Positions 1,110 through 62,405 of a stretch of 64,000 bases of DNA are shown piece by piece. The stretch's first letter is position 1; every line of letters starts with the position of its first letter. Below the pieces are notes generated by a model. It saw only the letters and a program-made list of their open reading frames with translations. It was not told the origin of the DNA and did not search any database. The position numbers and the translations under genes were made by a program. This stretch comes from an uncultured virus (IMG/VR IMGVR_UViG_2687453420_000004). Taxonomy: Duplodnaviria > Heunggongvirae > Uroviricota > Caudoviricetes. Location of the stretch: the IMG/VR virus record IMGVR_UViG_2687453420_000004, one strand, 5' to 3'.

Positions 1110-1363
1110 ATGAAAGTTGTAGTTATCGGTGGCGGTTGGGCCGGATGTGCCGCAGCTATAAGTGCTAAAAAGGCTGGTGCTGATGTTAGTATATTGGAAA
1201 AGACAGATTTGCTTTTAGGCTTGGGTAACGTTGGTGGAATAATGAGAAATAACGGAAGATTTACCGCAGCAGAGGAGCTTATAGCTTTAGGTGCTGGTGA
1301 TTTAATAAATATAACAGATGAAAACAGTAGACATAAAAACATAGATTTTCCTGGTCATAAACA
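1110..1363 (+). pseudogene. 5' fragment (codons 1-84) of host GidA/TrmFO-like FAD-dependent oxidoreductase, interrupted by the prophage
   Basis: N-terminal Rossmann motif VVVIGGGWAG; the frame continues seamlessly at 61600 (GHKH|AWLYDVNK). Confidence 0.9.
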
Positions 1364-1387
1364 TGCATGATTGATATAATTGCGACA
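1338..1387 (+). other. attL of prophage (crossover CA at 1362-1363; P' arm 1364-1387)
   Basis: P' arm is a 19/24 inverted match to 61576-61599; ACA shared with 61599-61601. Confidence 0.88.
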
Positions 1388-1834
1388 ATTCCTCCAAATA
1401 TTAACTTTACCTTAGATAAATTATACACTATATCTGAAAATGATACTATAGGAGAACGTATAAGAAAATTAAGGAAACTGAAAGATATGACTACTAAAGA
1501 GCTAGGAGAAAAAATAGGAATAACATCTGCTGGAATAATTAACTATGAAAATAACAACGCATATCCCTCAGCTCCAATAATATTGAAATTGTACACATTA
1601 CTAAGTAAAAATATAGCTTGCGATGATTATAGTAATTTTATAATATCTAAGTATTGGGAAAAATTAAAAGAGTGGAGAATAAATAATAAACTAACTCAAA
1701 AAGATGCTGCTACATTTTTACAAGTTGCTGAACGTACATACTATTCTTGGGAAAAGTGTAATTCTTATATAACTAGACATACATTTAATAAAATAAAAAA
1801 TAAATTAATTCAATTAACAACTAAGGAGCCTTAA
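1367..1834 (+). CDS. Double XRE-family HTH protein starting within attL
   Basis: Two HTH_3-like domains (IGERIRKLRK..., LKEWRINNKLTQKDAA); ATG overlaps the host-fragment stop (ATGA 1367-1370). Confidence 0.85.
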   Translation: MIDIIATIPPNINFTLDKLYTISENDTIGERIRKLRKLKDMTTKELGEKIGITSAGIINYENNNAYPSAPIILKLYTLLSKNIACDDYSNFIISKYWEKLKEWRINNKLTQKDAATFLQVAERTYYSWEKCNSYITRHTFNKIKNKLIQLTTKEP

Positions 1835-1846
1835 TTGGCTCCTGTT
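1822..1846. terminator. Bidirectional intrinsic terminator candidate
   Basis: AGGAGCC-ttaatt-GGCTCCT hairpin between convergent genes. Confidence 0.6.
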
Positions 1847-1998
1847 TATAATTTTAAAACTATCACATATATAATTATTAATAAACTATCCGCTATACAT
1901 CCCCATTTCATAGAGTTTTTATTACTATTATCTTTTTTATTGAAAAGTTTATTGCCAGTAAATCCTATCATACAAGACATTATTATATATTTAACCAT
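1846..1998 (-). CDS. Small membrane protein (50 aa), last gene of the ATPase operon; missing from ORF track
   Basis: AGGAGG RBS + ATG; MVKYIIMSCMIG...SLLIIIYVIVLKL with two hydrophobic ends. Confidence 0.6.
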   Translation of the reverse strand: MVKYIIMSCMIGFTGNKLFNKKDNSNKNSMKWGCIADSLLIIIYVIVLKL

Positions 1999-2006
1999 AT
2001 ATCCTC

Positions 2007-59932: not shown

Positions 59933-61548
59933 TGAAGGCAGGAATTTACAGCAGAAAATCAATGTTCACAGGTAAAGGTGACTCTGTAGAAAATCAAGTC
60001 CAAATGTGTAAAGATTATGGAAACAGATTAAATGTAGATGAATATTTAATATATGAGGATGAAGGGTATTCAGGAGGTAATATTAATAGGCCTAAATTTC
60101 AAGAGTTATTACAAGATGTTAAAAGAAAAAGTTTGACGTGCTTATATGTTATAGATTAGACCGTATAAGTAGAAATGTAGCAGACTTCTCTTCTACTCTT
60201 GAACTACTTCAAGACAATAATATAAGTTTTGTAAGCATAAAAGAACAGTTTGATACTTCTACACCGATGGGTAAAGCTATGGTTTATATAGCTTCTGTTT
60301 TTGCACAGTTAGAACGTGAAACCATTGCTGAACGTGTAAGAGATAATATGTTAGAACTCGCTAAATCTGGAAGATGGTTAGGTGGTCAAACTCCTTTAGG
60401 ATTTGAATCTGAAAAAATATCTTATTTTGATGCAGAAATGAAAGAAAGAACTATGTATAAACTTTCTCCTGAACCTAAAGAACTAGAATTAGTTAAATTA
60501 ATTTATAATAAATACTTAGAAACTGGATCTATACACCTAACATTAAAATATTTATTATCTAATAATATAAAAGGTAAAAATGGTGGAGAATTTGCATCCA
60601 TGTCTATAAATGATATATTAAGGAATCCTGTATATGCTAAATCTAATGAAATGGTACTTAATTATCTTGAAGATAAAGGCATGAATATATGTGGTACCGC
60701 TAATGGAAATGGTATCTTAATATATAACAAAAGAAACTCTAAGTATAAGAAAAAAAGTGTAAATGAGTGGATAGCTGCAGTTAGTAAACACAAAGGAATT
60801 ATACCTGCTAATACATGGCTAGAAGTTCAAAAAACTCTAGATAAAAATTCTAAAAAAGATACTCCAAGACAAGGAACATCTAAAAAGGCATTATTATCTG
60901 GAGTTTTAAAATGCAGTAGATGCGGTGCTCCTATGCGAGTTACTTATGGCAGGAAAAGAAAAGATGGCACTTCCATATATTATTATACATGTACTATGAA
61001 AGCTCATAGTGGCAAAACTAGGTGTGATAATCCTAATGTACGCGGGGACTATTTAGAAAAAAACATTATTACAGAATTAAAAAACTTAAATTCTGATGTA
61101 GTCATTAAAGGGCTTGAAGAACATAAAAAACAACTAGCTGCAACAACAGAAAATTCAATTATAAAAAATATTTCTAAAGAAATAGAAGAAAAAAAGAAAG
61201 AAATGGATTCTTTGATTAATAAACTTTCTAAAATAGAAAGTGATATAGCATCTGAATTTGTATTATCTAAAGTAGATTCTTTAGGAAAAGAAATTAAAGA
61301 ATTGGAAGTTAATTTATTAAAAAGAACCGATAAGAAAAAAGAAAACTGTGATATTGAACTTAATATTGAAATAGTGTTGCAAGCAATAAAGAATTTAATG
61401 ATTTTTTCAATAGTGTTGAGAGTTTTAAAGATGATGAATTAACTATACAAAGGAAAAGATATCTTCTTGAAAGAGCTGTAGATGAAATTAGAATAGATGG
61501 AGAAACTAATAGAATAGATATTGATTTATGGAGGGCTAAAAAAAATAG
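59932..61548 (+). CDS. Large serine recombinase (integrase), with apparent 1-nt deletions near 60124, 61389 and possibly 61540
   Basis: YSRKS, DEGYSG, YRLDRISR, LERETIAERV, CSRCG Zn ribbon; frame resumes EFNDFF...DIDLW. Confidence 0.92.
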
Positions 61549-61575
61549 CCTCCTCTATGGAATATGGTTCCAAAA

Positions 61576-61625
61576 TGTTGCAATTACATAAAGCATGTAC
61601 ACGCATGGCTTTATGATGTAAATAA
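61576..61625 (+). other. attR of prophage (crossover CA 61600-61601)
   Basis: P arm 61576-61599 is inverted relative to 1364-1387; host frame resumes. Confidence 0.88.
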
Positions 61626-62130
61626 AATAGAACCTGCTGTAAAAAATCATATGAAAAATATGGGCATAGATATTCATCTTCTCTCTAGAATAGTAGATGT
61701 AAAAAAAGAAGGAGATAAAATAAAAGGCATATATATTTCAGATGGAACCTATGTAGATGGTGATGTATTTATAGAAACTACTGGTTCTACAGGACCTATG
61801 GGCAATTGTTTAAGATATGGTAATGGATGTTCTATGTGTGTTCTAAGATGTCCTGCCTTTGGCCCTAGAGTAAGCTTAACTTCAAGAGCCGGAGTAGATG
61901 ATTTCCAAGGAGAAAGAGAAGATGATTTATTAGGAGCCTTTAGTGGTTCCTGTAAACTAGCTAAAGAAACTATGTCTGATGAATTGGTAAAAGAACTTGA
62001 TGAAACTGGATTATTGGTTTTAAAGGTTCCAAAGGAAGATATAAACTTAGATAAATTAAAAATGAAGGTTTGTCAGCAATATGCTCTAAAAGAATTTGCA
62101 GAAAATATCGTAATACTAGATACTGGCCAT
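61600..62130 (+). pseudogene. Middle fragment of the host FAD oxidoreductase
   Basis: DVFIETTGSTGPMGNC...GCSMCVLRCP; ends abruptly at LDTGH|SR*. Confidence 0.88.
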
Positions 62131-62135
62131 TCAAG

Positions 62136-62405
62136 GTGAACATAAATGCAACATTTAAAAAGATTTTTAAAACAATTGAAACTAATGAATCTGTAGCCTA
62201 TTCTAGACTACCTGAAGACACCATAGCTGAAAAAATTTATAAATTAAGAATGATTAAAGGATGCACTCAACGTGAATTTGCTAAAATGTGTTCAATTGGA
62301 TATTCAAGTTTATGTAAATATGAATTAGGGTTTAATCCTAGTATTAAAAACTTAAATAAAATTAGTAATGCATTCAATATTGATATAGGCTATTTTTTAA
62401 AGTAG
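62136..62405 (+). CDS. XRE HTH starting within the second attL
   Basis: GTG overlaps the host stop (GTGA); EDTIAEKIYKLR resembles NDTIGERIRKLR of 1367. Confidence 0.75.
   Translation: MNINATFKKIFKTIETNESVAYSRLPEDTIAEKIYKLRMIKGCTQREFAKMCSIGYSSLCKYELGFNPSIKNLNKISNAFNIDIGYFLK

Follow-up and report, generated by a model that had tools for sequence, protein, structure and literature searches.

Organization of the twice-interrupted host gene

The window analysed here is a 64,000-nucleotide stretch of DNA from an uncultured virus (IMG/VR IMGVR_UViG_2687453420_000004) in which a host FAD-oxidoreductase gene is cut twice by phage-derived elements, and at each cut an open reading frame (ORF) with XRE-type helix-turn-helix (HTH) motifs begins where the truncated host frame ends. 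Very probably, this one gene is occupied by two independent prophages whose large serine recombinases (LSRs) are related, and the HTH ORFs at their left junctions belong to the phage integration modules. Alignment to intact orthologues (P0003 and P0005, 425 amino acids, which Clostridium botulinum and C. sporogenes records annotate as FAD-dependent oxidoreductase) shows that a single gene is represented by two pieces, an ORF at 1110-1370 and a reading frame at 61549-62139, with 93-99% identity to the intact proteins. The 5' piece (1110-1367) corresponds to residues 1-86 and the middle piece (61600-62130) to residues from about 84/86 to 261, while residues 262-425 are absent from the window. 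The preliminary description had placed the cuts at the CA of two His codons, and comparison of attachment (att) sites and orthologues confirms both, at His85 (1362) and His261 (62128); the intact genes do not end naturally at the LDTGH motif but continue to 425 amino acids. The features discussed below are as follows (G001, G004, and G007 are provirus records introduced with the integration sites).

1110-1363, plus strand: 5' piece of the host FAD-oxidoreductase gene, amino acids 1-85 (P0003/P0005 alignment; GidA/FAD-binding Pfam matches)
1361-1363, plus strand: attL1 crossover, ACA, with the central CA at 1362-1363 (four-way att comparison)
1364-61599, late genes on the minus strand: element 1, a siphovirus-type prophage (PHROG matches; G001 comparison)
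1367-1834, plus strand: HTH1, 155 codons, two XRE-HTH motifs (Pfam; G001 ORF comparison)
1824-1843, plus strand: terminator-like hairpin after HTH1, with a weak T tail (hairpin scan)
59932-61591, plus strand: int1, an LSR gene in three frames (59932-60159, 60123-61442, 61370-61591) (Pfam)
61538-61545, plus strand: A8 tract at the end of int1 (A9 in G001 and G007), at the position of the family-wide A9 tract (alignment)
61599-61601, plus strand: attR1 crossover, ACA (four-way att comparison)
61602-62129, plus strand: middle piece of the host gene, amino acids 86-261 (orthologue alignment)
62128-62129, plus strand: attL2 crossover, CA of His261 (comparison with intact genes)
62130-62405, plus strand: HTH2, the severed 3' end of the element-2 integrase gene, comprising a linker and one XRE-HTH domain (fused homologues; G004 frames)
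62399-62429, plus strand: terminator-like hairpin after HTH2 (hairpin scan)
62430-64000, no strand assigned: left end of element 2, which runs off the window (76% DNA identity to the phiCT453B/phiCT19406C regulator region; Pfam)
62711-63004 and 63081-63359: two HTH regulators of element 2 (Pfam)
63396-63914, minus strand: lipoprotein-like gene of element 2 (Pfam)

In an intact genome (L001), the oxidoreductase gene stands alone on its strand between one divergent and one convergent neighbour, and is therefore monocistronic, with a promoter that serves this gene alone. The encoded protein shows only a generic GidA/TrmFO-like FAD fold in Pfam and matches no curated NCBIfam family above cut-off, so that no link to sporulation is shown for it, and no directionality factor was identified. 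Within the window, the open frame of the 5' piece continues into the phage arm as far as a TGA at 1368-1370. At the opposite end of element 1, an ATG in the phage P arm at 61564 starts an ORF that runs in frame through the host middle piece (MVPKCCNYIKHVHAW...), and the chimeric ORF born at attR1 (MPKCCNYIKHVHAW...) matches P0002, a protein of 352 amino acids with 48 member sequences. This ATG-started ORF (61564-62139) is in frame with the middle and 3' parts of the host gene, and lysogens could produce from it an N-terminally shortened oxidoreductase without the FAD-binding GxGxxG motif.

Integration site 1 and the int1-HTH1 module

All four forms of site 1 were observed in L001, G001, and the window. 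The attB1 sequence in L001 reads ...GGTCATAAA CA CGCATGGCTT... (local core CATAAA CA CGCATGG), whereas the window carries ...CATAAA CA TGCATGATTG... at attL1 and ...GCATGTA CA CGCATGGCTT... at attR1. The IMG/VR provirus G001 carries attP1 (...GCATGTA CA TGCATGATTG...), in which the right end of the phage is joined straight to the left end, and this region is 100% identical to the window on both sides. The base following CA is T in attP and attL and C in attB and attR, so the polymorphic base moves with the right arm. Because this base and the bases preceding CA differ by form, the exchange can be assigned to ACA (1361-1363 and 61599-61601). The arms of attP1 form an imperfect inverted repeat with its dyad about CA (21/30 by hand count).

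Element 1 is 60,238 bp in size and has PHROG matches for terminase, portal, major head, tail tube, tape measure, Dit, endolysin, replication, repressor, and anti-repressor proteins. G001 contains the same phage (99.8% identical) in attP configuration; neither the host protein nor the host gene found a match in G001, which represents the phage without host flanks. A further provirus, G007, has the same attL1 as the window and an integrase 97% identical to that of element 1.

The int1 gene encodes the resolvase catalytic, recombinase, and zinc ribbon domains of an LSR (PF00239, PF07508, and PF13408). In the window it occupies three frames, since compared with G001 one A is missing at each of three places, 60121 (A5 to A4), 61388 (A4 to A3), and 61538 (A9 to A8), so that int1 is not intact in this copy. 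The gene is intact as an ORF of 539 amino acids in G001, G007, and the P0242 cluster (21 members), and a contig from a public sequencing run (X5) has the extra A at both positions compared, 61387 and 61537. All three run-shortening indels of the window lie within int1, and the run deletions of G001 all lie elsewhere; G001 lacks single Ts in runs that break the tape-measure gene and other genes, of which the window has unbroken copies. Both assemblies may plausibly contain homopolymer errors, genuine decay of int1 being the alternative, and if the deletions are real, element 1 cannot exit by its own integrase.

Pfam confirms PF01381/PF12844 XRE-type HTH domains in both left-junction ORFs (E values of 1e-13 for HTH1 and 4e-10 for HTH2). 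In G001, the 539-residue Int1 ends in ...AKKK-TAG and an HTH ORF of 171 codons begins 9 nucleotides (nt) later, crossing attP1. This longer ORF (HTH1-long, L082:4061-4576) starts MEYGSKMLQLHKACTC/MIDIIAT. As the HTH1 ORF spans attP1, integration strips its first 16 codons. A promoter-like hybrid at 1352-1380 was also considered at this junction and was dismissed, as 5 such sites were seen against 9.3 expected.

Integration site 2 and the severed end of int2

At site 2, the window reads GGC CA TTCAAGGTGAAC... (TTCAAGG), whereas intact genes (L001 and the public-run contigs X5 and X6) read GGC CA TGCAAAATTAATG (TGCAAAA). Since the intact genes differ from the window after CA, the T at 62131 is phage-derived and the exchange falls within CAT at 62128-62130. 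An exact-pattern scan of viral contigs for the attL2 arm returned no match. Relatives of HTH2 were found in three IMG/VR proviruses (G004, G005, and G006). In G004 (49.5 kb), the oxidoreductase gene is uncut at site 1 and cut at site 2, with an HTH piece at one end of the provirus and, at the other end, a serine integrase followed by the host gene from amino acid 262 onward (attR2). The second integrase, second attR, and 3' gene fragment that the preliminary description expected downstream are therefore present in this relative, in which precise excision would restore the host gene; they are not in the window, which ends inside element 2.

The G004 integrase ORF has no stop before attR2, reading ...CAT AGC ACA TGC AAA..., and the HTH frame at attL2 reads ACA TGC AAG GTA AAC.... 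As the two frames are the same, one frame runs across the rebuilt attP. Naturally fused forms of this kind exist: 20 of the 120 best homologues of the G004 integrase are fusions of 643-663 amino acids with an HTH2-like C-terminus (E no greater than 2e-18), whose last approximately 90 residues align end to end with HTH2 of the window at 45-65% identity. The remaining homologues stop or diverge right after a ...MLQF.S.S(T/M)C motif. A fused ORF of 667 amino acids that contains attP (L110) is the uncut partner of two further loci, L109 and L113, in which the same integrase is cut at CA and joined to oxidoreductase site 2 of another species (CGTAAAACTTATGACC...). These sequences are identical up to ...AGCA CA, after which L110 continues as phage (TGCAGT...) and L109 and L113 as host gene. 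Another fused ORF, L119, has phage genes on either side: those for a sigma factor, a repressor, and an ImmA-like protein lie upstream, and one for an amidase lies downstream. Given these natural fused ORFs and the shared frame, HTH2 is the severed 3' end of int2.

The relatives of int2 carry PF00239, PF07508, and PF13408 in precomputed domain assignments, and together with the domains of int1 this bears out the earlier view that both insertions are serine-recombinase elements. Sequence identity is 45% between Int1 and Int2 and 35%, over 62 residues, between HTH1 and HTH2. HTH1-long also aligns with the linker and HTH region of the fused proteins, including the att-encoded stretch KMLQLHKACTC/EMLHFSSPSTC.

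Two candidate sources of comparison for element 2 were set aside. The region at 62627-63360 has 76% DNA identity to the regulator region of the C. tetani phages phiCT453B and phiCT19406C; these phages were rejected as counterparts because their att arms differ and phiCT453B shares the regulator region alone. G005 is uninformative with regard to attP2, as it ends 9 nt before the HTH piece and has a tyrosine integrase at its other end.

The A9 tract at the end of int1-type genes

The int1-type genes differ from the directly fused lineage in how the integrase frame ends. We compared 80 viral-contig loci of the Int1 family, which are 43-97% identical. A run of at least nine As lies within the last 45 nt of the integrase gene in 31 of the 80 loci, against 0.36 expected from composition. 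Such runs are rare otherwise, since the 80 loci together with L082 (297 kb) contain 36 runs of nine or more As and 4 of nine or more Ts in total, leaving about 5 A runs elsewhere. The 0-frame stop follows 0-15 nt past the run, the neighbouring residues vary (SKKK-stop, KKKLLL-stop, KKKGAL-stop), and in L189 and L190 the nine As occupy the other codon phase (xxA AAA AAA AAx). Six loci have a long downstream flank and at least eight As. In four of these (G001/L082, L152, L189, and L219) the -1 frame leads into the HTH region, remaining open for 155-175 codons from the tract into the double-HTH ORF; in L159 and L161 it closes early because an oxidoreductase piece intervenes between int and the HTH end. 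In L152 and L219, neither ATG nor GTG precedes the HTH domain, and the only candidate starts there are TTG codons in the att-arm motif. The direct-fusion lineage has the A tract in none of its 18 members.

The int1-type loci thus show sequence features of a slippage site: a conserved slippery run, a near 0-frame stop, and a trans-frame ORF whose domain is fused directly in the sister family. The 31 A9 tracts and the -1 frame into HTH suggest programmed slippage, and we infer that Int1 would become fused to HTH across attP if the transcript gained an A or the ribosome slipped by -1. It is also quite possible, at somewhat below an even chance, that A9 merely encodes a Lys-Lys-Lys tail in the preferred AAA codon and that HTH is always translated on its own from a nearby downstream ATG or TTG, possibly through termination-reinitiation. 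AAA is a common Lys codon at 29% G+C, an ATG precedes the HTH domain in G001 and L189, and no fused int1-type protein occurs among 120 homologues in the database. A lysine tail by itself would account poorly for nine As kept in 31 such divergent loci amid varied neighbours and twice in the other codon phase, for the near absence of these runs elsewhere in the same loci, for the two loci without ATG or GTG before HTH, and for a sister family that encodes the same product as a direct fusion.

Junction similarity, orientation, and independence of the two elements

The 24-nt arms that follow the two cuts are 16/24 identical, as first noticed (binomial P 2.6e-4), and only 7 of the 63,976 24-mers of the window score at least 16/24 against arm 1. 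The two bacterial sites are random-like with respect to each other (attB1 and attB2 agree at 21/62 positions). The att sites are of the LSR type, short, with little shared by attP and attB beyond a 2-bp non-palindromic CA centre, and with hybrid attL and attR forms. The arms agree at 16/24 positions because the coding att arms are homologous, and the junctions match because the int-attP-HTH module of both elements shares ancestry.

The stop/start overlaps are also present as described, with the TGA at 1368-1370 overlapping an ATG at 1367 (ATGA, 1367-70) and the TGA at 62137-62139 overlapping a GTG at 62136 (GTGA, 62136-39). The relative frame is the same at both sites because host CAY GCA (His-Ala) corresponds to phage-frame ACA TGC (Thr-Cys), and the overlaps with the host frame would be by-products of the att core. 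In G004 and G005, GTA stands in place of the HTH2 GTG, and no ATG, GTG, or TTG precedes Met38; in G006, an ATG lies three codons upstream. Each HTH gene is followed by the terminator-like hairpin that had been noted there, although the first has a weak T tail.

Orientation is not conserved. Among 112 viral-contig integrase loci, 15 have enough flank to show an oxidoreductase piece, and by DNA comparison this piece follows int on the same strand in 8 and on the opposite strand in 7. In the opposite orientation, the HTH end points away from the host promoter. Truncated Int2-family proteins most often end in ...HSMTSIK, a C-terminal tail encoded by the reverse complement of the ...DTGH codons. 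We sorted the tails of 120 proteins with a permissive pattern rule that gives rough counts, and obtained 65 of opposite orientation, 11 of the window type, and 18 fused (20 by BLAST), with the rest unclear; 10 further proteins of the 120 were judged by eye to be of the window type.

The two insertions also occur separately. Among contigs of public runs, none of which covers more than half of the junction words compared, X1 shows an uninterrupted site 1 together with an element-2-like arm at site 2; in X5, element 1 is present and site 2 intact, and in X6 neither site is interrupted. Strains with element 1 alone, element 2 alone, or neither therefore exist.

A recurrent multi-site target

The oxidoreductase gene is a recurrent multi-site target of LSR elements in Clostridium. 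A third site, after amino acid 333 (GHTEA), is occupied in C. oceanicum (L038, 10972) and in a metagenome genome (L077, 2030), and the arms in both cases carry the same TGC(A/G)A(C/G) motif. Gene pieces bounded on both sides span amino acids 83-333/336 in five loci (L125, L126, L143, L145, and L146), approximately 257-336 in three (L114, L159, and L161), and 83-262, as in the window, in G006, whose host gene is 71% identical. Since double-bounded pieces recur, double occupancy is common and occurs in several combinations and orientations. Two further pieces, of amino acids 25-86 (L142) and 25-262 (L122), together with N-terminally short forms of 392 amino acids, hint at a fourth site.

Loci L142 and L146 belong to one 36.8-kb IMG/VR record, in which a serine recombinase lies in a stretch of approximately 5.9 kb between oxidoreductase gene pieces that end at amino acids 77 and 86. 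This arrangement suggests that site 1 carries a mini element in opposite orientation and that another insertion, at site 3, lies next to it.

Other features of element 1 and its relatives

The G001 record (99,125 bases; loci L090-L094) carries slightly more than one permuted copy of the window phage, in the order window 6485-61607, attP, and then 1361-8915, inside a diverged related prophage. The layout is as if a phage circle had entered the resident prophage via homologous recombination with attP kept. The fused integrase of L110 is similarly placed, mid-way in a 112-kb provirus.

The tape-measure gene of element 1 (minus strand) is split into 27158-28219 and 21735-26447 by an insert of approximately 750 bp at 26445-27198, which the G001 phage lacks. 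This insert holds an ORF of 105 amino acids without a Pfam match, and at 26484-26690 it aligns with the full length of the group I intron model RF00028 (44.6 bits, E 6.6e-10; gathering score 50). Neither the Rfam nor the tRNA scan, run over the whole window, returned anything at gathering score. Although element 1 is a serine-recombinase phage, a tyrosine recombinase (Phage_integrase with a SAM-like N domain) is encoded mid-element at 42519-43514 on the minus strand. Two adjacent minus-strand ORFs at 10103-11675 match PHROG transposase families and lie near methyltransferase and DUF6996/6997/7226 genes, which suggests an insertion sequence (IS) within the prophage. The cargo beside attL1 (2007-8732) includes a 794-residue ATPase of phrog_5156 with a weak TrwB-like match, two small membrane proteins, a YibE/F-like membrane protein (plus strand), and a NusG-domain-II protein; the other phage of G001 carries a divergent version of this ATPase.

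Proposed mechanism and alternative explanations

The attP core lies inside coding sequence in both modules (int2-HTH and HTH1), as in a gene that integration remodels. Because attP falls within a coding unit linking a recombinase to an XRE-HTH domain, the left-junction HTH ORFs are assigned to the integration module. From the att sites, frames, natural fused forms, orientations, and A9 conservation set out above, the following sequence of events can be proposed. Two prophages would have integrated at different CA-centred attB sites of one conserved monocistronic oxidoreductase gene. In the element-2 type, recombinase and HTH would form one ORF across attP that integration cuts. In the lysogen, attR would then carry an integrase without its tail, and attL an HTH piece that has no promoter and often no start codon; excision would re-fuse the two. 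In the element-1 type, int would end at A9 with the HTH ORF in the -1 frame across attP, and integration would remove the first 16 HTH codons as well as the link to int. The free or excised form would then give an integrase with an HTH tail, directly or through A9 slippage, and the prophage a tail-less integrase.

Several observations weigh against this interpretation, in addition to the missing int1-type fusions and the possible lysine tail discussed with the A tract. In G001, HTH1 could start at an ATG of its own, 9 nt past the int stop, so that slippage is not required there. Element 2 is visible for 1.9 kb alone, so that int2 and attR2 are deduced from relatives whose HTH pieces show 91-92% identity. 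When HTH2 was searched against protein representatives, multi-HTH proteins dominated the 150 matches, of which 10 were stand-alone proteins of 88-99 amino acids and 2 were proteins of approximately 650-718 amino acids matched at the C-terminus. The ATG of HTH1 lies four bases past the crossover, the GTG of HTH2 overlaps the host stop, and neither has a Shine-Dalgarno sequence; given these retained starts, host-coupled translation could still take place in this strain.

A broader proposal, which we consider doubtful but not far-fetched, is that in Clostridium serine-integrase phages Int-HTH comes from the circle alone (by fusion or A9 slippage) and tail-less integrase from the prophage, that the tail might set the direction or timing of recombination or stop the lytic programme on entry, and that in the window orientation the detached HTH behind the host promoter might read out host-gene activity. 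If true, the state-dependent HTH tail would be a built-in switch without separate sensing of integration.

It is unlikely that a more limited coupling operates, in which the detached HTH, or at least HTH1, would be made from host-promoter transcripts in the window orientation and serve as a prophage-state regulator or recombination cofactor, so that phage decisions would respond to the activity of the host gene. At attL1 of both the window and G007, the ATG lies 4 nt past the crossover and overlaps the host stop; HTH1, which follows the int stop closely in the attP form and has no Shine-Dalgarno sequence, seems to need translation from upstream whether integrated or free. The second of its HTH motifs shows a weak likeness to the VC1465 Xer-activation factor family, although at 27 bits this falls below the cut-off of 70; orientation, moreover, varies across the family.

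The preliminary description went further and held that each HTH gene senses host expression through translational coupling to the truncated host ORF, with HTH2 coming under the host promoter only once element 1 has left, in an ordered, skin/SPbeta-like two-step assembly of the gene. Overlaps without Shine-Dalgarno sequences at both junctions, a hairpin after each HTH, the dedicated promoter of a monocistronic gene, and the existence of gene-restoring LSR elements in Clostridium, such as yin in yabG (PMC10747680), speak for such a switch, but it is highly improbable, as HTH2 is part of the int2 gene and its GTG is not conserved, opposite-orientation insertions are frequent in the same gene, single lysogens of either element exist, both elements look like full-size phages instead of decayed skin-like elements, int1 is frameshifted in the window, the host protein has no shown sporulation link, and the absence of a T-tailed terminator from the int1 end to 62136 means that int1 read-through could reach the middle piece and HTH2 with element 1 still in place.

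Comparison with known systems and significance

SPbeta in spsM and skin in sigK are reportedly gene-interrupting LSR elements of spore formers. The elements described here resemble them, and also yin, in that an LSR element lies within a host ORF, the integrase sits beside one junction, and excision would restore the gene. In turn, yin is an LSR element in the host ORF yabG of C. botulinum, and its precise excision restores the gene (PMC10747680). Unlike in those systems, the host gene here has no shown sporulation link, element 1 is a complete-looking phage, attP is inside an int-HTH coding unit, and the gene has three or four target sites that are often doubly occupied.

Remodelling of a phage gene by integration has precedents among tyrosine integrases. 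In the myxophage Mx8 (IntP/IntX), attP lies inside int and integration gives int a new 3' end with altered properties (PMC6070905). Only the C-terminal tail changes in that tyrosine integrase, whereas here a serine integrase sheds a whole XRE-HTH domain, and the detached HTH becomes a separate ORF at the other prophage end. In mycobacteriophage BPs and its relatives, attP lies inside an HTH regulator gene beside int, and the viral and prophage forms of the regulator differ (PMC4557955). BPs differs from the present case in using a tyrosine integrase and in losing a 3' degradation tag of the repressor, whereas here a 5' end or the link to int is removed. Moreover, no immunity role is shown for the HTH ORFs described here. 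In SSV1-type archaeal viruses, the integrase gene is itself partitioned by integration; that system involves a tyrosine recombinase whose catalytic gene is broken, whereas the catalytic and DNA-binding LSR domains stay together here. With regard to the A tract, Thermus dnaX, with its A9, and IS elements use programmed slippage or -1 frameshifting at A runs, and the int1-type genes share with them a conserved nine-A run, a near 0-frame stop, and a conserved trans-frame ORF.

A search of open-access full-text literature found no serine integrase with an XRE-HTH tail split by attP, no slippage in recombinase genes of this kind, and no prophages in this oxidoreductase gene, all of which is weak evidence of absence. 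The int-attP-HTH architecture is unusual and apparently undescribed.

Serine integrases are valued in genome engineering because they are simple and one-directional, and natural control of their direction is known for few. If our interpretation is true, this would be a lineage in which integration strips the integrase of a DNA-binding domain and excision restores it, tying the form of the enzyme to its integration state, and the A9 tract would add a recoding site to a gene class without a described one. Annotation of split genes can give rise to spurious small HTH-regulator genes at prophage edges and to apparently variable integrase C-termini, and one conserved gene can gather several related phages. 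The symmetry that had hinted at a sequential switch reflects common descent, and the two elements are a pair of ordinary prophages with unusual integration modules and a candidate recoding site.

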